Shown: positions 6,747 to 35,854 of the stretch, one piece after another
How the letters are laid out: each line of letters starts with the position of its first letter
How positions within the stretch are numbered: position 1 is the first letter of the stretch
Translations under genes and position numbers: made by a program
The notes under the pieces: model-generated
What the model saw: only the letters and a program-made list of their open reading frames with translations
Told to the model about the DNA's origin: nothing
The model's database searches: none
Origin: a virus
Lineage: Duplodnaviria; Heunggongvirae; Uroviricota; Caudoviricetes
IMG/VR virus record: IMGVR_UViG_2700989507_000031
Reading direction: 5' to 3' (one strand)
DNA length: 36,875 bases

Positions 6747-7032
6747 TTCTCTGTTGTTCTGGTGCTTATATATCACATCCTTTTTCGGCGCATTTGTTAT
6801 TACCCGGTGGTTATGTCGAAAAATCATCTGCTTTTTTGATAAAAGACATCCGGTTGAACGGGCGGCTGATGCGCTCATTCAGCAGGCCATTGTGTTATAT
6901 AGCGGTGAATTTTTCTGCCGGATAACAACCAGAGATGGCTGGCACATAATGATTATTCCACCAACACACCATGCCCGGTGGGATGAGGCAGAAAAGGCTT
7001 TCCATGTCCGTAAAAAGGTAAATACGGTATGA
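6736..7032 (+). CDS. Early-region small protein with N-terminal hydrophobic helix (98 aa)
   Basis: SD 'aaggag'; N-terminal 'LLFWCLYITSFFGAFVIT' is TM-like. Confidence 0.45.
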   Translation: MDNSSLLFWCLYITSFFGAFVITRWLCRKIICFFDKRHPVERAADALIQQAIVLYSGEFFCRITTRDGWHIMIIPPTHHARWDEAEKAFHVRKKVNTV

Positions 7033-7538
7033 GAGGAAAACTGATATCCGCCATTCATGTGGCAAAGCGCGAGCTTGCCCTGGATGATGAGACTTATACA
7101 TCCGCGCTGCTGGCAGCCACCGGCAAAACCAGCTGCCGGGATATGTCACCGGATGAGTTATCCCGCGTGCTGGATGTTTTCAAAAAACGCGGTTTTAAAG
7201 TGCGTCAGAACCCGGTTAACCGGGCCTTAAAACCGGGTACGGTGACCGCCAAAATTCGCGCCATCTGGAAGGTGATGCACCGGCAGGGCTTTATCACCGA
7301 TGGTGCGGAAACCGCCCTTAACCGCTGGGTGAAATCGCAGACGGCCGCGCAGAACGGCGGCGAAGGTGTGGCAAACTGGCAGTGGCTGGAGCAACACCCC
7401 GCCCTGGCCTCAGATGTGCTGGAGCGTCTCAAGCGATGGCACCGCCGCAAAATGCTGGCCGCGATGGGAATGCCCGAACGCACGCTGATGGGGTATGACG
7501 CCGTTTGCAGGCAGTATGAAAAATCACTTCCCCGTTAA
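7029..7538 (+). CDS. gemA: GemA-like protein (Mu gp16 family)
   Basis: N-terminal 'KLISAIHVAKRELALDDETYTSALL...TGKTSCRDMSPDEL' is the recalled GemA hallmark; sits directly upstream of the Mor-like gene. Confidence 0.7.
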   Translation: MRGKLISAIHVAKRELALDDETYTSALLAATGKTSCRDMSPDELSRVLDVFKKRGFKVRQNPVNRALKPGTVTAKIRAIWKVMHRQGFITDGAETALNRWVKSQTAAQNGGEGVANWQWLEQHPALASDVLERLKRWHRRKMLAAMGMPERTLMGYDAVCRQYEKSLPR

Positions 7539-16006: not shown

Positions 16007-17131
16007 ATGAAGACGAAAAACACGCCCAAACTTGCTTATGCCATTCTGAATGCCATCAGCCTGTCCGCAGACGGGGACGGTGACTGGTGTCAGATCATGC
16101 CAGCCGGTCGGGTAAAGGCCCGTGACGGTCGCCCGGAAAAACCGGCCGAGGGCTGGCTGATCAACCATGCAGCCGTTGAGCGCATGGTCTCCCGTGTTGT
16201 GGCGCTCAATCAGCCGGTGAAAATTGACTACAACCACCAGACCCTGATTGAGGGACATCCGGCACCGGCTGCCGGTTTTGTGATGGCCTCACCGGAGAAT
16301 TTTCGCTTCAGTGAAGAGCGAGGTTTCGAGGTGCGCCCGAAGTGGAACCCTCCGGCCCTTGAACATCTGCGTAATAACGAATTCCCCTGGTTTTCACCGG
16401 TGATTGGCTATGACGAGAGCACCGGCGAACCTGTCGAACTTCGGATGCTGGCTATTACCGGTGACCCCGGTCTGACCGGCATGAATCCTGTCGCCGCACT
16501 GTCGGCGGATGACCTTTATAACGCCTTAAACCCTCCTTTAAAGGATACCTCCATGAATGAGCAATTACGCCAGTTGCTGACGGCGCTCGGTCTGACCGTG
16601 GCTGACGGTGACGAATTTACGCCGGAGCTGGGCACGGCAGCGCTGTCTGCCCTCACCGGGATCAAAACCCGTGCGGATGCACACGACAACCTGAAAACAC
16701 AGGTCGCCAGTCTGTCGGCAGAGCTGGAAACCGCAAAAGGCACACCGGCTGGCGGCAGTATTGATCTGACGAAATACGTGCCCGTTGAAACGTATAACGC
16801 CCTGCGTACCGAATACGTTGCGCTGTCGGCACAGCACGGCAGCACCACACTGGAGCAGGTGCTGGACAAGGCTGAATCCGAAGGGCGCATCTTCAAAAGC
16901 GAACGCGGCTATCTGGAACAACTGGGCGGGCAGATTGGCGTGGCGGCACTTTCTGCACAGCTTGACGCCCGACAGCCGGTTGCGGCCCTGACCGGTCTTC
17001 AGACCGACACCGTGACCGTGCCGGATAAAAAGACTGCCACCGCTGTGCTGTCGGCTGAAGATATCGCGGCCGCCAAACTGCTGGGTAAAACCGAAGCCGA
17101 GTTCCTGAAAATGAAAGAGGAAATGCAATAA
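16007..17131 (+). CDS. Head protease/scaffold protein, Mu I-like (gp32)
   Basis: 374 aa; N-terminal protease-like domain and Ala-rich coiled C-terminal half; directly precedes the major head gene. Confidence 0.8.
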   Translation: MKTKNTPKLAYAILNAISLSADGDGDWCQIMPAGRVKARDGRPEKPAEGWLINHAAVERMVSRVVALNQPVKIDYNHQTLIEGHPAPAAGFVMASPENFRFSEERGFEVRPKWNPPALEHLRNNEFPWFSPVIGYDESTGEPVELRMLAITGDPGLTGMNPVAALSADDLYNALNPPLKDTSMNEQLRQLLTALGLTVADGDEFTPELGTAALSALTGIKTRADAHDNLKTQVASLSAELETAKGTPAGGSIDLTKYVPVETYNALRTEYVALSAQHGSTTLEQVLDKAESEGRIFKSERGYLEQLGGQIGVAALSAQLDARQPVAALTGLQTDTVTVPDKKTATAVLSAEDIAAAKLLGKTEAEFLKMKEEMQ

Positions 17132-18078
17132 TGCCTACCCCGATTACACCGGCGATGATCACCGCCCTGATGACGGGCTACCGTTCTGATTTTCAGGCCG
17201 GGATGTCCATGGCCCCGTCGCAGTACAAAAAAATTGCGATGACCGTACCGTCCACGTCGAAATCCAACACCTACGGCTGGCTGGGGCAGTTCCCGCAGTT
17301 CCGTGAGTGGATCGGCTCCCGCGTCATTGAGAAGATGAAAGCCTATGGCTATGCCATCGTGAACAAAACCTTTGAAGGCACCGTCGCCATTAACCGCGAT
17401 GACTTCGAAGACGATAACCTCGGTATTTATTCCCCGTTGTTCCAGGAGATGGGGCGCGCTGCTGCGGCACAACCGGATGAGCTGGTCTTTGCTGCTCTTC
17501 GTGACGGGATTAATGCGGCCTGCTATGACGGCCAGAACTTCTTTGATACCGAACATCCTGTTTACCCCAAGGTGGATGGCTCCGGGGATGTGCAGATGGT
17601 CAGCAATATGTTTGTGGCGAAAACCGGCTCTGTCGGCGCACAGGCGGATTACAGCGGTCCTGCCTGGTATCTGCTCGACTGTTCACGCGCAATCAAGCCG
17701 CTGATTTATCAGGATCGCCGTAAGGCCGAGCTGGTTGCCCAGACCAAAGTCGATGAAGGTCGCGCATTCACCGATAACGAATTTGTGTTTGGTGCATCCG
17801 CCCGTCGCAATGTGGGCTACGGCTTCTGGCAGATGGCCTACATGATGCAGTCACCGCTGACGCTGGATGCACTGTGGCACGGCTGGTCAGCCATGCGCGA
17901 ATTTACCGCTGACGGTGGCCGCAAACTCGGCATTAAACCCACCCATATTGTTGTCCCCACCTCGCTGGAAAAACAGGCGGTGCAGCTGCTGGAGCGTGAA
18001 CTGTTCGCAGACGGAAACGCAACCGTCTCTAACGAGATGAAGGGCAAGCTGGAGCTGGTTGTCGCGGATTATCTGTAA
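17131..18078 (+). CDS. Major head subunit, Mu T-like (gp34)
   Basis: 315 aa; start overlaps the I stop; conserved position. Confidence 0.85.
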   Translation: MPTPITPAMITALMTGYRSDFQAGMSMAPSQYKKIAMTVPSTSKSNTYGWLGQFPQFREWIGSRVIEKMKAYGYAIVNKTFEGTVAINRDDFEDDNLGIYSPLFQEMGRAAAAQPDELVFAALRDGINAACYDGQNFFDTEHPVYPKVDGSGDVQMVSNMFVAKTGSVGAQADYSGPAWYLLDCSRAIKPLIYQDRRKAELVAQTKVDEGRAFTDNEFVFGASARRNVGYGFWQMAYMMQSPLTLDALWHGWSAMREFTADGGRKLGIKPTHIVVPTSLEKQAVQLLERELFADGNATVSNEMKGKLELVVADYL

Positions 18079-28853: not shown

Positions 28854-29404
28854 CCCTGACCCCGCATCAGCGCGCCCTGTTGCAGTTGCTGCCTGACGGG
28901 CTGGCATGGGATAAGCGGCCGTCATCCGTTCTTGCGGCTTTGTGCCTGGGCCTCAGTCATTCCACGGAGCGTGTTTCCTGGACCGGTAACCAGATGCTGG
29001 CAGAACGTTTTCCTGATTCATCCCGTCTGCTGCTGGAAGACTGGGAGCGTTATCTGGGGTTACCGGAATGTGATATGACCGGCGCAACCATTCAGGAACG
29101 TCAGCGTTATGCAGGGAATAAATACCGGATGAAACCCTCTCTTAACCGTGAATTTTATATCCGGTTTGCGGCAGAGTTTGGTTATGAAATAGATATTCAG
29201 CCATCACCGGATTCACAGTGGGTCAGTATTGTCACGATAAACAGTGAAACCGGCTACCGGAATATGAATGTGCTGGATGATATTCTCACCCCGCTGCGTA
29301 TTTATGAGGGTGGTGCGCTGGAATGTATTCTGAACCGTTATAAGCCTGCATGGCAGACGTTTATTTACGTGTATGCAAACAGTCACAAAGAGGAGAATAT
29401 TTAA
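28844..29404 (+). CDS. Tail protein, Mu gp48-like (gpI family)
   Basis: 186 aa; stop overlaps the tail-fibre ATG. Confidence 0.7.
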   Translation: MAVTLTPHQRALLQLLPDGLAWDKRPSSVLAALCLGLSHSTERVSWTGNQMLAERFPDSSRLLLEDWERYLGLPECDMTGATIQERQRYAGNKYRMKPSLNREFYIRFAAEFGYEIDIQPSPDSQWVSIVTINSETGYRNMNVLDDILTPLRIYEGGALECILNRYKPAWQTFIYVYANSHKEENI

Positions 29405-30315
29405 TGTTCCATGTTGATAATAATTCCGGCGTGGCGAATATGCCTGAACTGGCTCCGGCGCAGAGTAATACCACCACCTGGTTTACCGAAGGTGACGGAC
29501 AAAAAGGTATCAGCTGGATTGGTCAGGACTGGCTGAATATTCTCCAGGCCGAACTGCTGAATATTCTGGCTGAAGCCAGTATTCAGCCGGATAAGGCGCA
29601 GTTAAACCAGCTTACGCTGTCCATTAAAGCCATTATCGCTGCGAATGCCTTTTCCCGGAAAAACAACCTGAAAGAAATTGCTGATGCCGGTGCGGAAGCC
29701 CAGCGTCTGGCCCGTGGTTATCTTGGTCTGGGGACGCTTGCCACAAAAAACAGTCTTGGTCCCGCTGACGTTAATGCCCTGGCGAAGGATCAGAACCTTG
29801 CCGACCTGGAGAATGCGGAAACCGCCCGTAATAATCTGGATGTTTACAGCAGGAGCGAAGGTGATAACCGTTACCTGCGCAGGGACCAGAATGGCGCGGA
29901 TATCCAGGACAAAGGAACCTTTATCGATAACCTCGGTTTACGGGAAACGGTAAATAAGGCTGCTGATGCCCTGCCATCGGCTGGAACCGCCGTGGCAGCA
30001 AACAGACTCGCCACCCCAAGAAATATTAATGGTGTTCCTTTTGACGGAACGCTGGATATCAACATCACGTCAGGAATGACGCAGTCAACCGCAGATGGCC
30101 GGTATGTACAGAATGTTCAGCTTGGAGCACAGAGCTATCATTCACCCGGAGGCAATGAAATGTCATGGAATTACAGCGCACCTTCCGGTTGTATGCTTTC
30201 CGGTATTAACGTGCAGGAAACCGGCTCCCGGTCTGCGGACAATATCGGTGGGGTCTATTATCGCCCGGTTCAGATTTATATTAATAATGCCTGGAGAACG
30301 GTAAGTTCAGTGTAA
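29404..30315 (+). CDS. Tail fibre protein S: constant part (29404-29932) fused to variable tip Sv (29935-30315) in the present orientation
   Basis: ATG 29404 overlaps the gp48 stop; gix-like site inside the ORF at codons 'FIDNLGLRETV'; the C-terminal 123 aa are homologous to the minus-strand cassette. Confidence 0.8.
   Translation: MFHVDNNSGVANMPELAPAQSNTTTWFTEGDGQKGISWIGQDWLNILQAELLNILAEASIQPDKAQLNQLTLSIKAIIAANAFSRKNNLKEIADAGAEAQRLARGYLGLGTLATKNSLGPADVNALAKDQNLADLENAETARNNLDVYSRSEGDNRYLRRDQNGADIQDKGTFIDNLGLRETVNKAADALPSAGTAVAANRLATPRNINGVPFDGTLDINITSGMTQSTADGRYVQNVQLGAQSYHSPGGNEMSWNYSAPSGCMLSGINVQETGSRSADNIGGVYYRPVQIYINNAWRTVSSV
29921..29946. repeat. gix-like crossover site, left
   Basis: 'TTATCGATAACCTCGGTTTACGGGAA'; shares the 17-bp core 'TCCCGTAAACCGAGGTT' in inverted orientation with 31347-31372. 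Confidence 0.8.
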
Positions 30316-30325
30316 ACCACAGAAA

Positions 30326-30344
30326 AGGGTGCTGAATGCACCCT
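30326..30344. terminator. Hairpin between convergent S and U' genes (candidate bidirectional terminator)
   Basis: 'agggtgc-tgaat-gcaccct'; on the minus strand it is followed by 'ttttctg'. Confidence 0.5.
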
Positions 30345-30349
30345 CTGAA

Positions 30350-30877
30350 TTATTCCGGTTTTTCCGGCCAGGGAATCGCCTGGTAATGCCCCTCACTGGC
30401 AATATCATTAAAGTGCATTTCTTTAAGCTGTCGGATATACGCCATCCAGCGCGTCAGCTGTAATTTATTTTCATCGCTAATCATGTCCAGTTTTAATTCT
30501 GTTTTCCAGTCATCCACGGTTTCGTTGGCTTCCTGGAGCAGCGATGAGCGACGCTTTTCAGCAACCGTCTTCCAGTTTACCGGCACCTTTGATATCAGGC
30601 CATCAGAAAACTGCCAGTTACCGTCAATATTCACACCTTCCGGCAGTTCGTCCACTTCAACAACAGTAAAACCTGCCGGATATAAAGCAGAGACATCTTC
30701 AGCAACAGAGCAGATAATACCCGTTACAGGCGAAATACAGAGTTTGTATTTCTTTGTAAAAAGCGGGATAGATTCATAAAAATCCCTTCCGTCCTCACTC
30801 TGGAAATACTGAACATCCTCACCATAGGGTTTGTCTTTCGGGTAATATCGTTTGACATTAATCAGTTGCATAAACAT
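30350..30877 (-). CDS. Tail fibre assembly protein U' (serves the inverted orientation)
   Basis: C-terminal 'LTRWMAYIRQLKEMHFNDIASEGHYQAIPWPEKPE' is a tail-fibre-assembly hallmark; N-terminus 'MQLINVKRYYPKDKP' parallels Mu U. The track ORF start at 30922 adds an implausible hydrophobic leader; three ATGs at 30883, 30877 and 30871 are candidate starts. Confidence 0.75.
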   Translation of the reverse strand: MFMQLINVKRYYPKDKPYGEDVQYFQSEDGRDFYESIPLFTKKYKLCISPVTGIICSVAEDVSALYPAGFTVVEVDELPEGVNIDGNWQFSDGLISKVPVNWKTVAEKRRSSLLQEANETVDDWKTELKLDMISDENKLQLTRWMAYIRQLKEMHFNDIASEGHYQAIPWPEKPE

Positions 30878-30992
30878 CACCATGTAAATCAATGATAAAA
30901 ACAGGAATAATACTATCGCCATATACAGGCAATGCTTGTCTGAAATAACGCATATTTCAGATGCTGGCTGCTGTGTGCTATGCCCCCGTTAA

Positions 30993-31364
30993 TTAAATAC
31001 TTGCAGCGGATACCCAATGCCCATTAATACAATATTGTATCTGTCTGTAATAAACACGGTCATCACCACCACGCATTTCCCAGTCTCCGTCAGTCTTAAA
31101 ACCGGTAATCACATTTCCTGATGACAGGGAGTAATTATATTCCAGTCCGCCGCTTAATGCCTGCGCTCCCAGTCTTACCCCTGTAACATAACGCTGATTG
31201 GCCGTTGATTCCGGCATTCCTGACGTAATGTTTATATCCTGCGTGCCGTCAAAGACGACACCATTGATTCTGCGGGCATTTGCCAGCCTGCTTGCTGCAA
31301 CAGCCGTACCGTTTGATGGCAGGGCATTCGCGGCCCTGTTTACCGTATCCCGTAAACCGAGGTT
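30993..31364 (-). CDS. Silent alternative tail-fibre tip cassette Sv' (no own start; would fuse to S after inversion)
   Basis: Minus-strand frame 'NLGLRDTVNRAANALPSNGTAVAASRLA...ESTANQRYVTGVRLGAQA...' begins right after an in-frame TGA inside the right gix site. Homologous to Sv 'NLGLRETVNKAADALPSAGTAVAANRLA...QSTADGRYVQNVQLGAQS'. Confidence 0.7.
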   Translation of the reverse strand, partial: NLGLRDTVNRAANALPSNGTAVAASRLANARRINGVVFDGTQDINITSGMPESTANQRYVTGVRLGAQALSGGLEYNYSLSSGNVITGFKTDGDWEMRGGDDRVYYRQIQYCINGHWVSAASI

Positions 31365-31426: not shown

Positions 31427-31987
31427 ATGCTGATTGGCTATATACGCGTATCAACAAATGACCAGAACACCGGTTTACAAAGAAATGCGCTGGAATGTGC
31501 AGGATGTGAGCAGATTTTTGAAGACAAAATGAGTGGTAAAACGACACAGCGGCCGGGACTGAAGCGGGCACTGAAGAAACTAAAACCCGGTGACACGCTG
31601 ATGGTCTGGAAACTGGACAGGCTGGGGCGCAGTATGCGCCACCTTGTTGCGCTGACAGATGAATTACAGCAACAGGGGATAAATTTTCGTAGTCTTACTG
31701 ACAACATTGATACGTCAACCCCCATGGGGCGCTTCTTTTTTCACATAATGGGTGCGCTGGCAGAAATGGAGCGTGAATTAATTGTCGAACGGACACGGGC
31801 TGGTCTTGCAGCTGCCCGTGAAAGGGGACGAACCGGCGGCAGACCCCGCCGTCTCACGCAGGAACAATACGAGCAGGTCGGGCGTTTACTGGCCGGGGGT
31901 GTCAGTCGAAGACAGGTGGCACTTATTTTTGATATCGGTCTTTCAACCCTTTATCGTTATTATCCTGCGAGCGTTTCGGAAAAATAA
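31427..31987 (+). CDS. gin: Serine DNA invertase, Gin/Hin/Pin/Cin family
   Basis: N-terminal 'MLIGYIRVSTNDQN' with catalytic Ser; C-terminal HTH 'GVSRRQVALIFDIGLSTLYRY'; SD 'aaggaagg'; adjacent to the invertible segment. Confidence 0.95.
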   Translation: MLIGYIRVSTNDQNTGLQRNALECAGCEQIFEDKMSGKTTQRPGLKRALKKLKPGDTLMVWKLDRLGRSMRHLVALTDELQQQGINFRSLTDNIDTSTPMGRFFFHIMGALAEMERELIVERTRAGLAAARERGRTGGRPRRLTQEQYEQVGRLLAGGVSRRQVALIFDIGLSTLYRYYPASVSEK

Positions 31988-32086: not shown

Positions 32087-34126
32087 ATGACGTCCAAATG
32101 GGTTCAACTATCATCAATGCCCGGAAACTTTACTGTTAAAGTTTCCGGTGGTACAGCGGCATTTCTTGAGGCTCCCTTTCCTCCGGCCGAAACAAAAGGA
32201 GGAATGACATTTGCTGACTGTCTCATCAGTTTTAATACACGGGATTGCCTGTGGGTAAGGCCAGTATCCGGTGATCCGAGTGTGGAAATTACCGGAGCGG
32301 GTATTGGTGCGGTCATTCCGTTAAGTGCTGATGTTGCCGGTACTGCTGAACCGTCAGACTGGGATAATGCTGAAACACATACCCGTCCGTCAGGAAATGA
32401 AACTGCTTCCAGCTCCCCTTCCTGGTATTACGTGGTGGTTCTTGCTGGTCAGTCAAACGGTATGGCTTACGGTGAAGGTCTGCCACTGCCGGAGACATAT
32501 GACCGCCCCGAACCGCGTATTATGCAGTTAGCCCGTCGCAGTACAGTCACGCCGGGAGGTAAAGCCTGTCAGTATAACGACATCATTCTGGCCGACCACT
32601 GTCTGCATGATGTGCAGGATATGAGTGGAAAAAATCACCCGAAAGCGGATGTGGCTAAAGGGCAATATGGCACCGTGGGTCAGGGGCTTCACATTGCCAA
32701 AAAACTGCTGCCGTTTATTCCGGCAGATGCGGGGATTCTGCTGGTTCCCTGCTGCCGTGGTGGTTCTGCATTCACGGCGGGTGCTGACGGCACGTACAGT
32801 GACAGCACGGGTGCTTCAGAGGACTCAGCCCGCTGGGGTGTGGATAAGCCGCTGTATAAGGACTTAATCAGCCGGACAAAAGCGGCACTGGCGAAGAACC
32901 CGAAAAACCGCCTGCTTGCTGTGGTGTGGATGCAGGGCGAGTTTGATATTGATGCGAAGCCGACGGAGCATTCTGCGCTGTTTCTGGCGATGGTGGAAAA
33001 ATTCCGCGCAGACCTGGCTGAACAGGCGGAACAGTGTACCGGTGGCAGTGCTGCTGGCGTTCCGTGGATTTGTGGCGATACCACGTATTTCTGGAAACAG
33101 AAAAATGAACCAGCATACCAGGCAATCTATGGCGGCTACAAAAACAAAACAGATAAAAACATTCATTTCGTTCCATTAATAACAGATGAAAATGGCGTGA
33201 ATGTACCCACCAACAATCCGGCAGAAGACCCGGATATTGAATCCATTGGTTATTACGGCTCAACGTGGCGTAACAGTGCCGCTACCTGGACATCTGCGGA
33301 CCGGGCCAGCCATTTCAGTGCCTGGGCGCGCCGGGGTATTATTTCTGACCGTCTGGCCACGGCTGTTCTGACTCATGCAGGGCGAACCACAGTAAAAGCC
33401 GATGTTCCATCTTCTGAAACTGAAGCACCAGTGCCATCACCTTCAGAAACTGAAGCAGTAACCACAACACTGCTGTCTTACCGTGTCAGTGAGTCAGAAG
33501 GAAATCTGAAAGCCCAGGGCTGGGAGCCGGCTGGCGGTAAAGCTGAAATTATCAGTGATGCAGGAGGCACAGGTGGTAAGGCAATGAAACTGACCAAGGA
33601 AACAGGTAAATCATCCTGGTATCTGGATCATGATGCCGGTACTGGTGCTGAACTGCTGAAAAATGGTGGTTTAATCAGTTGTCGTTTTAAAGTACCTGGC
33701 GACCTGGTGGCAAACCAGTATGTCATGGCGCTTTACTGGCCGGTTTCCTCTCTGCCGCAGGGTGTCACCCTGACAGGGGATGCAGGGAATAATCTGCTGG
33801 CATCGTTCTACATCCAGACAGACGCAAAAGACCTGAATGTGATGTACCACAATGCAAAAGTGGCAACAAATAACCAGAAACTGGGAACCTTTGGTGCATT
33901 TGATAATGAATGGCATACGCTGGCCTTCCGTTTTGCAGGAAATAACAGCCTTCAGGTTATTCCGGTTATTGATGGTCAGGATGGTGCCGCGTTTACCCTG
34001 ACGCAGTCACCAGTAGGAACTTTCCCGGTGGACAAACTCCGCGTAACGGATATCACCAAAAATGCAACTTACCCGGTGCTGATTGACAGCATTGTGGTGG
34101 AAGTGAAAAAAGCGGTAACAGAATAA
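32087..34126 (+). CDS. Multi-domain SGNH/SASA-like carbohydrate esterase (N-terminal ~110-aa domain, esterase core, S/T/E/P linker, C-terminal beta-sandwich-like domain)
   Basis: Esterase block 'YYVVVLAGQSNGMAYGEG' (GQSN motif); linker 'SSETEAPVPSPSETEAVTTT'; no N-terminal signal peptide; SD-like sequence upstream. Confidence 0.6.
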   Translation: MTSKWVQLSSMPGNFTVKVSGGTAAFLEAPFPPAETKGGMTFADCLISFNTRDCLWVRPVSGDPSVEITGAGIGAVIPLSADVAGTAEPSDWDNAETHTRPSGNETASSSPSWYYVVVLAGQSNGMAYGEGLPLPETYDRPEPRIMQLARRSTVTPGGKACQYNDIILADHCLHDVQDMSGKNHPKADVAKGQYGTVGQGLHIAKKLLPFIPADAGILLVPCCRGGSAFTAGADGTYSDSTGASEDSARWGVDKPLYKDLISRTKAALAKNPKNRLLAVVWMQGEFDIDAKPTEHSALFLAMVEKFRADLAEQAEQCTGGSAAGVPWICGDTTYFWKQKNEPAYQAIYGGYKNKTDKNIHFVPLITDENGVNVPTNNPAEDPDIESIGYYGSTWRNSAATWTSADRASHFSAWARRGIISDRLATAVLTHAGRTTVKADVPSSETEAPVPSPSETEAVTTTLLSYRVSESEGNLKAQGWEPAGGKAEIISDAGGTGGKAMKLTKETGKSSWYLDHDAGTGAELLKNGGLISCRFKVPGDLVANQYVMALYWPVSSLPQGVTLTGDAGNNLLASFYIQTDAKDLNVMYHNAKVATNNQKLGTFGAFDNEWHTLAFRFAGNNSLQVIPVIDGQDGAAFTLTQSPVGTFPVDKLRVTDITKNATYPVLIDSIVVEVKKAVTE

Positions 34127-34736: not shown

Positions 34737-34810
34737 CAATACAAACCGACAGCTTCTCCTGTCGGTTTGATTTTCATGGGCGATGTATATACCAGTCAGA
34801 GGAAATAATC

Positions 34811-35011
34811 ATGGACAAGAACAAAAAACAGCCCGATACCAAAGGTCTGGAAATATTAAGCGCAGAAATTATCAATGCGCTACGTTCAGGACTTGATGAA
34901 AATACATTACAGGATCGAAACTTCACCACTGCAATGTGGATAGCGATGCAGATCCTGTGTACCCCAAGATGCGCTATTTTTGCGGTTCGTGAGGGTCAGT
35001 TGACTCGCTGA
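34811..35011 (+). CDS. Small hypothetical protein (66 aa)
   Basis: SD 'gagga' before ATG; 3' end overlaps the convergent minus-strand gene. Confidence 0.45.
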   Translation: MDKNKKQPDTKGLEILSAEIINALRSGLDENTLQDRNFTTAMWIAMQILCTPRCAIFAVREGQLTR

Positions 35012-35180
35012 TTGCCCGAATTACATCAGAAAAGCACGCGTTCCATAATTGCATAGCTGATGAATCACCAGCTGTATGAAAAGAGGTAAAGACACAACTG
35101 GTGGATGTCATTGCTGCAATTGTGATATCAGCTGCAATTCGCGCAGCCTGTAACTTTTGGTCGGTGGTCAGTTTATCCAT
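34974..35180 (-). CDS. Small hypothetical protein (68 aa from ATG 35180)
   Basis: Minus-strand SD 'aggaga' immediately upstream of the second in-frame ATG (35180); the track ORF starts 8 codons earlier at 35204. Confidence 0.45.
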   Translation of the reverse strand: MDKLTTDQKLQAARIAADITIAAMTSTSCVFTSFHTAGDSSAMQLWNACFSDVIRAISESTDPHEPQK

Positions 35181-35255
35181 TTTCTCCTGCCTGAACAGAT
35201 GCATCTCTGCTTTACAGGAGACCGGGGAATATCATAGGATACACCACGAGCTCAG

Positions 35256-35447: not shown

Positions 35448-35625
35448 GATCCTACCTTCACTGGATAAAAAGTCAATAAAATGATCATTTTATGATCGTT
35501 TTCACCACCTAACTCTTCGTTTTCTTTAAGTAAATAATCACCGTCCTGAATCATTGTTGATGACTTTTAAATCTATTTGTTGTATCAATTAAACAAATCG
35601 AATCGATCGTTTTTGTCGATCGATT
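35448..35625 (+). promoter_or_regulatory. AT-rich control region with five GATC sites upstream of com
   Basis: GATC at 35448, 35483, 35494, 35605 and 35618. Direct repeat 'atgatcatttt/atgatcgtttt'; palindromic pair 'aatcgatcg' (35601-35609) and 'cgatcgatt' (35617-35625). Confidence 0.45.
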
Positions 35626-35668
35626 GCATGAGAAAGGCATCAACAACAAAGCAGGAGGTTATGCGGCC

Positions 35669-35854
35669 ATGTATCGAAACATACGGTGCCGACACTGCAA
35701 TAAGCTACTGGCACGGGCCAGTTTCAGTTATCTGGAAGTAAAATGTCCGCGCTGTAAAACCCTCAATCAAATCACATCTCAGAGCGCCACAGAGCACCCC
35801 ACATACACAAGGAAATCCTGCCGTGGGGAACAAGAAACATTACTTTCAGTCTGA
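35669..35854 (+). CDS. com: Com-like zinc-finger translational regulator
   Basis: 'MYRNIRCRHCNKLLARASFSYLEVKCPRCKTL' parallels Mu Com 'IRCKNCNKLL...IRCPRCK' as recalled; SD 'aggagg' 10 nt before ATG; 3' end overlaps the downstream gene by 32 nt, as com overlaps mom in Mu. Confidence 0.7.
   Translation: MYRNIRCRHCNKLLARASFSYLEVKCPRCKTLNQITSQSATEHPTYTRKSCRGEQETLLSV

Follow-up and report, generated by a model that had tools for sequence, protein, structure and literature searches.

What is a large esterase-like protein doing directly behind the invertase gene of a Mu-like phage? The question is raised by a 679-amino-acid (aa) protein encoded on a 36,875-nucleotide (nt) stretch of phage DNA (IMG/VR record IMGVR_UViG_2700989507_000031, Caudoviricetes), which we analysed over its whole length and refer to as the window. 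The product of 32087-34126 is very probably a sialate 9-O-acetylesterase of the NanS-p type, the cargo of a temperate Mu-like phage of Escherichia coli. NanS-p is the prophage-borne paralogue of NanS found in Shiga toxin (Stx) phages, and z1466 of phage 933W as well as multiple alleles of EDL933 and O104:H4 are active esterases on 5-N-acetyl-9-O-acetylneuraminic acid (Neu5,9Ac2) (PMC8065619). Neither the family nor its fold, activity or lectin domain is new, and RefSeq already has a name for the protein. What is new, judging from the sequences compared here, is that the capsid-binding N-terminal domain DUF1737 has been swapped for a ~80-aa module found only in Mu-like phages.

The window is that of a Mu-type phage, encoding MuA (C-terminal domain), MuB, GemA, Mor, lysozyme, Portal_Mu, MuF, protease I and the major head protein gpT (17131-18078); nanS-p sits between gin and com, near the right end. 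Its open reading frame (ORF) runs intact from ATG to stop, as the initial annotation had proposed, and the protein features four parts: an N-terminal module (N-module), a SASA/SGNH esterase domain with a GQSN motif, a linker rich in S, T, E and P, and a lectin-like C-terminal domain. RefSeq often gives a 669-aa product that starts at Met11 (32117 instead of 32087). The longer start is favoured because residues 1-10 are kept in alleles that are just 60% identical and because AGGAACAGG, a motif resembling a ribosome-binding site, precedes 32087; a real 10-aa indel in linker 2 also separates 679-aa from 669-aa alleles. The 99-nt gap between gin and nanS-p holds an AGGA-type ribosome-binding site. 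In PHROGs the protein belongs to phrog_143 (E=0), a family of unknown function, and no NCBIfam model matches it.

The catalytic part leaves little ambiguity about the family. Pfam places SASA (PF03629) at aa 116-312 (E=6.7e-12), and in a comparison with PDB sequences aa 104-428 align end to end with E. coli NanS (YjhS, 3PT5) at ~70% identity (E=2.9e-118). The block from which an SGNH/SASA-like esterase had initially been proposed, 'VLAGQSNGMAYGEG', is present: GQSN occupies aa 121-124, with Ser123 at 32453-32455, and is accompanied by CCRGGS (222-227; oxyanion Gly), WMQGE (281-285) and RASH (406-409; His409 at 33311-33313). All four blocks are unchanged across the homologue alignment and match the definitions given for NanS and NanS-p, including RASH/RSSH (PMC10462455). 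Compared with NanS-p proteins of the DUF1737 type, identity is 64-89%, with 73-89% in the esterase part, and the ratio of nonsynonymous to synonymous substitution rates (dN/dS) of the esterase domain is 0.09-0.12. Activity on Neu5,9Ac2 and on the O-acetylated sialic acids of mucins would be expected from this identity to the lambdoid alleles: the EDL933 and O104:H4 enzymes de-O-acetylate mucin glycans and enable growth on Neu5,9Ac2 (PMC8065619).

The C-terminal part is equally well placed. DUF6645 (PF20350) covers aa 524-642 (E=4e-70), and aa 459-674 match the solved NanS-p C-domain 6YP6 at ~85% identity (E=2.8e-112, PDB sequences). Because the whole length aligns with 6YP6, we read this part as a lectin-like jelly-roll, the fold of the phi24B NanS-p C-domain, for which carbohydrate binding has been proposed (PMC8065619). 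The beta-sandwich carbohydrate-binding domain of the initial annotation is thereby borne out in kind, at ~220 aa (459-679) in place of the ~250 aa estimated. AlphaFold2 (AF2) models the domain with a predicted local distance difference test score (pLDDT) of 65-88. Its aromatics Y545, Y550, Y575 and F646, which correspond to Y510, Y515, Y540 and F611 of the proposed sugar site in phi24B, are all conserved, and dN/dS is 0.18-0.25. The low-complexity linker noted earlier lies at aa 433-458; in the phi24B homologue gp84 the equivalent linker is a reported autoproteolysis site (10.64898/2026.04.10.717836). Given the SGNH blocks, the sugar-site aromatics and the low dN/dS, the gene reads as an intact NanS-p-type esterase gene under selection. 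What had been missed at first is that this is a named and biochemically characterised family, with solved structures for a homologue of the esterase (3PT5) and for the C-domain (6YP6).

Some points weigh against this identification. The substrate specificity assigned to the protein would follow from its being ~70% identical to NanS. For the whole protein, the AF2 model computed from an alignment of 12 sequences is poor (mean pLDDT 51, esterase domain below 50) owing to the shallowness of that alignment; it was set aside, and the esterase fold therefore rests on sequence identity to 3PT5. Finally, no late promoter was identified upstream of nanS-p, where sigma-70-like sites occur at chance level. 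The upstream region and the other intergenic regions likewise yielded no common motif.

But what replaces DUF1737? The initial annotation had described an N-terminal domain of ~110 aa and of unknown function. The second half of that description stands; the region itself resolves in the AF2 model into a folded all-beta module of ~80 aa (barrel predicted at aa 6-78; pLDDT 75-91) followed by a disordered linker of ~30 aa. DUF1737 (PF08410) finds no match in the protein even at E<=1, and its fold, one helix and three strands, differs from the all-beta N-module. Fold searches with the module returned nothing like a known decoration protein. Compared with alleles 60% identical to it, the N-module has a dN of ~0.28 with dS saturated; compared with the more similar allele of locus L014, its dN/dS is 0.10, and on these rates it is under purifying selection. 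A word-indexed search with the N-terminal 115 aa retrieved near-identical E. coli fragments only, and an exhaustive HMMER search with the N-terminal part gave just five matches. The HMMER match to P0125, a 1445-aa repeat protein, was judged compositional and not used. No paralogue of the module occurs elsewhere in the window.

The phages that carry the module are of a single type. Of the loci with an N-module, 38 of 38 are Mu-like: 37 of E. coli/Shigella type (L001, L003-L039), compared by tblastn with the proteins of the window, and one from Salmonella enterica (L040). Where the upstream DNA is covered, the gene follows a Mu-like fibre and tail-fibre-assembly gene in all 37 of the former, usually with gin in between; where the downstream DNA is covered, it is followed by genes for DUF1378 and DUF826, and in most loci by com. 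Gene calls and Pfam matches for L003-L005 show a Mu gp41-gp48 context. The Salmonella protein (P0128) is the only distant homologue of the module, at 29% identity, and it too is encoded in a Mu-like prophage, in the order gp43-gp48, fibre, inverted fibre and tail-fibre-assembly genes, resolvase, two small ORFs and then the esterase. Further diverged Salmonella variants are P0129 and P0139. Two scans of a one-genome-per-species collection, for the N-module and for P0128, found nothing. In the literature we found no description of a Mu-like NanS-p with an alternative N-module or of its exclusive association with Mu-like phages; a 2023 survey of NanS-p diversity covers DUF1737-type proteins of Stx phages only.

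Among the homologues, two architectures can be distinguished: DUF1737-SASA-DUF6645 proteins of ~645 aa in lambdoid phages, and proteins of 669-691 aa without DUF1737. To the latter belong the window protein and a further group, ~66% identical to it overall but collinear from residue 1. At the DNA level, similarity to Stx-phage nanS-p begins at ~32421-32435 (codon ~113-117) and stops just before the stop codon. Exchange at this boundary is visible within the Mu-like loci themselves: in L014-L017 the N-module is 96-98% identical to that of the window, the esterase 66-69% and the C-domain 38-44%, with the break at linker 1, across which identity in L014 falls from 96% to 67%. Megablast among phage records did not find a source for this divergent esterase and carbohydrate-binding part. 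That lambdoid and Mu-like copies exchange parts is seen directly in a natural recombinant, the 643-aa E. coli protein P0068, which combines DUF1737 and a 933W-like esterase up to ~aa 260 with a remainder 96-100% identical to the window protein. From these two patterns we conclude that the N-module stays with the phage backbone while the esterase and lectin modules are exchanged. A third, short N-terminus occurs in the S. enterica proteins P0131 and P0137, where 'MSRRVMSYSGYPLTVLTPEDLNNLP...' is joined directly to the same AGQSN esterase and both DUF1737 and the beta-barrel are missing; NanS-p-like esterases therefore appear to have a general swap site at their N-terminus.

How would such a protein work? 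By analogy with its relatives, it would act as a Ser-His SGNH esterase for O-acetylated sialic acids that removes the 9-O-acetyl group from free and mucin-bound forms, leaving sugars accessible to sialidases and to the Neu5Ac (N-acetylneuraminic acid) catabolism of E. coli, with the C-domain targeting the enzyme to glycans. A hydrophobic stretch of the signal-peptide kind is absent, in agreement with the initial annotation (the highest Kyte-Doolittle mean over 12 residues in the first 40 aa is 0.98), so NanS-p must exit by phage-mediated lysis: made in the cytoplasm, it would reach its substrate only then, possibly attached to the released particles.

This last point bears on the N-module. The Mu capsid is built of gpT and has T=7 geometry. 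In phi24B, according to a 2026 preprint, the virion contains abundant gp84, the NanS-p homologue: its DUF1737 binds as a hexamer in the face-centre hexon pore of the capsid (T=9), and its esterase and lectin parts are slowly cleaved off at the linkers (10.64898/2026.04.10.717836). Since a module confined to Mu-like phages stands exactly where DUF1737 would, an equivalent role in docking to the Mu-type particle suggests itself. A Mu-type gpT head differs in geometry and lacks the T=9 face-centre hexon bound by DUF1737. We put forward, at rather less than an even chance, that the N-module serves as the docking domain for the Mu-type virion. The early suggestion that the protein is virion-associated may then be right after all, although on the capsid and through a different domain.

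The strongest competitor, to which we would give a chance not far short of even, is that the N-module is a second glycan-binding or oligomerisation module of a soluble enzyme, that NanS-p is a nutritional fitness factor of the lysogen, and that the association with Mu-like phages reflects common descent. The fold of the module is a generic small beta-barrel whose low-ranked matches include the carbohydrate-binding PA14 and CBM6, and the lack of resemblance to a decoration protein fits this explanation as well. The gene also belongs to neither the head nor the tail operons but to the Mu accessory region behind gin, and the N-module diverges much faster (60% identity between alleles) than the neighbouring baseplate J and gp48 (92-94%). 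However, the esterase and carbohydrate-binding parts are exchanged freely with lambdoid phages while the N-module never crosses. DUF1737 is always lambdoid and the barrel always Mu-like, even at 29% identity in Salmonella, which is the pattern expected of a phage-specific partner; and the lambdoid counterpart at the same N-terminal position is a proven capsid anchor.

If the docking function holds, a more general picture can be drawn, which we offer with somewhat greater reserve: NanS-p could be a modular, phage-displayed, mucin-modifying enzyme whose anchor is swapped to suit each capsid while the catalytic and lectin cassettes recombine freely. The anchors would be DUF1737 in T=9 lambdoid podoviruses, the barrel in Mu-like myoviruses and the third short N-terminus in some Salmonella prophages, and the DUF1378 and DUF826 proteins could belong to the same functional unit.

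A virion-borne enzyme of another kind had been envisaged initially: an O-antigen or capsule deacetylase that modifies the receptor and aids adsorption as a tailspike accessory. SGNH/SASA esterases do occur in phage tail proteins, the 'tail protein' family phrog_25867 weakly matches the SASA region (E=4e-5), the gene comes after the tail-fibre/gin module, and cleavage of lipopolysaccharide (LPS) O-acetyl groups by NanS-p has been raised as an open possibility (PMC8065619). Nevertheless, we consider this role improbable. NanS, with which the catalytic domain shares ~70% identity, is specific for sialate, and those NanS-p enzymes that have been characterised use Neu5,9Ac2 and mucin, which points to the 9-O-acetylated sialic acids of host mucins as the substrate; Pfam and PHROGs reveal no tail-attachment or trimeric spike domain; and the phi24B homologue decorates the capsid, not the tail. 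An intracellular role in defence or anti-defence, for which the missing signal peptide and the proximity to a right-end accessory region with a putatively com-controlled DNA methylase might speak, is highly improbable for a protein closely related to a catabolic esterase of the periplasm and joined to a lectin domain: PADLOC matched neither NanS-p nor the DUF1378, DUF826, 66-aa and 76-aa products downstream, and we know of no acetylated glycan in the cytoplasm that could serve as a target.

Table 1. Positions of the nanS-p-type gene, its parts and the adjoining features in the window.
Feature	Coordinates	Strand	Basis or remark
nanS-p-type gene, 679 aa, probable sialate O-acetylesterase	32087..34126	+	ORF; 3PT5 and 6YP6 matches; Pfam SASA and DUF6645; PHROG 143
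N-module, aa 1-87, small all-beta cupin-like barrel replacing DUF1737	32087..32347	+	Proposed adaptor to Mu-type virion
Linker 1, aa 88-112, S/T/P/E-rich, disordered	32348..32422	+	pLDDT <50; recombination breakpoint zone
SASA/SGNH esterase domain, aa 113-432	32423..33382	+	3PT5 alignment; blocks; invariance; dN/dS
Linker 2, aa 433-458, S/T/E/P-rich, 'RTTVKADVPSSETEAPVPSPSETEAV'	33383..33460	+	Sequence; allele indel
Lectin-like jelly-roll, putative carbohydrate-binding domain (DUF6645), aa 459-679	33461..34123	+	6YP6; Pfam; aromatics; AF2
Gin-type serine invertase	31427..31987	+	Pfam Resolvase and HTH_7; directly upstream of nanS-p
DUF1378 small protein, 60 aa	34273..34455	+	Pfam E=1.2e-38; travels with nanS-p
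DUF826 small protein, 81 aa	34491..34736	+	Pfam E=3.1e-15; synteny; travels with nanS-p
Bidirectional terminator-like hairpin, 11-bp stem	34742..34769		Closes the nanS-p/DUF1378/DUF826 block

The neighbouring genes (Table 1) bear on how nanS-p came to be where it is. In Stx2_14040, an Stx2a phage, stx2AB is followed by nanS-p (under the name yjhS), then by genes for 60 aa and 81 aa and by the holin gene, the two small genes being homologues of those for DUF1378 and DUF826; in Stx phage L002 the pair lies behind nanS-p at 6839-7304. The three-gene block is common to lambdoid Stx phages and Mu-like phages, and its presence in two unrelated phage types supports the initial view of the gene as acquired cargo in the accessory region behind gin. 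DUF1378 and DUF826 may be functionally tied to NanS-p; the abstracts retrieved in a literature search held nothing concerning these two genes. The DUF1378 protein has a hydrophobic N-terminus, and the DUF826 protein is acidic.

[quoted passage not shown] The N-terminal segment occurs in 205 of 5,426 complete E. coli genomes, again mostly STEC or bovine, and a single genome has as many as four copies. Among phage records, the complete Mu-like genome turned up in just two, both of Stx prophages, LC727881.1 and LC727895.1, where a Mu-like phage is inserted in Stx2c and Stx1a prophages (depositor label 'inserted Bacteriophage Mu-like phage'). Insertion in Stx prophages and the presence of up to four copies are consistent with active transposition. 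The related Sakai prophage Sp18 is reported to be intact and efficiently packaged, and not inducible by mitomycin (PMC2669165); such packaged Mu-like prophages of O157 count among the precedents for an anchor role.

Some features of the surroundings stand apart from the esterase. Upstream, a G-like invertible segment within 29350-31364 adjoins gin, with imperfect 179-nt inverted repeats at 29929-30107 and 31186-31364; it contains a single tail-fibre-assembly gene (30350-30922, minus strand) and an alternative fibre tip on the minus strand (30993-31217). As the segment is oriented in the window, no chaperone gene lies downstream of the expressed fibre. Two overlapping ORFs separate the terminator from com, 34811-35011 (plus strand, 66 aa) and 34974-35204 (minus strand, 76 aa); their products are 88-100% identical across diverged Mu-like loci and match no Pfam or PADLOC family. 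At the right end, the gene for the Com zinc-ribbon protein (35624-35854) shares an overlap with the beginning of a gene for a C5-cytosine DNA methylase (PF00145, 35823-36875), whose stop codon ends on the last base of the window. The gene after com encodes a 245-aa hypothetical protein in L001 and a methylase in L003-L005, L007, L012 and L033. The right end of Mu carries com-mom; here, a Dcm-like methylase may take the place of Mom under the control of a translational activator of the Com type.

Why would another copy of an ordinary enzyme matter? For STEC, these esterases are an established fitness factor in exploiting the O-acetylated sialic acids of mucin. A Mu-like prophage with a full NanS-p copy falls outside Stx-centred surveys, so counts of nanS-p dosage in pathogens may be incomplete. 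If, in addition, the N-module is an anchor to the Mu capsid or tail, the display of the enzyme on virions would be a selected and portable trait, and the phage would offer a simple system for asking why the particles of temperate gut phages bear mucin-modifying enzymes.

Finally, we would like to set the protein beside the systems it resembles. With the NanS-p of Stx and other lambdoid phages (L0105/z1466 of 933W; vb_24B_21, i.e. gp84, of phi24B) it shares an esterase that is 73-89% identical with identical catalytic blocks, a DUF6645 C-domain with the four aromatics, S/T/P-rich linkers, the lack of a signal peptide, the DUF1378 and DUF826 genes downstream, and alleles that recombine with one another. 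It differs in that their ~55-aa DUF1737 is replaced by an unrelated all-beta module of ~80 aa and a longer linker, that the carrier is a transposable myovirus of the Mu type, and that the gene follows gin close to the right end, whereas theirs belong to the Q-dependent late operon, between stx and holin S. Chromosomal E. coli NanS, a product of the nanCMS operon, is periplasmic, consists of one domain and has a signal peptide. The catalytic domain aligns with it end to end and retains all SGNH blocks; unlike NanS, the 679-aa protein lacks a signal peptide, has additional modules at both termini and is phage-borne. SGNH-esterase tailspikes such as gp63.1 of phage G7C deacetylate O-antigen and are likewise phage-encoded SGNH-superfamily esterases acting on an acetylated glycan. 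However, domains for tailspike attachment or trimerisation are missing from the window protein, its catalytic domain falls in the sialate-esterase NanS clade, and its sole match to a tail family in PHROGs is weak and limited to the SASA core. The layout of a small N-terminal module, a flexible linker, and an enzyme and lectin is reminiscent of capsid-displayed enzymes and decorations such as gp84 of phi24B and the mucin-binding Hoc of T4. Unlike gp84, which is anchored by DUF1737, the protein described here carries an N-module without structural likeness to that domain or to known decoration proteins, and docking to the virion is a proposal that the exact replacement of one module by the other suggests.

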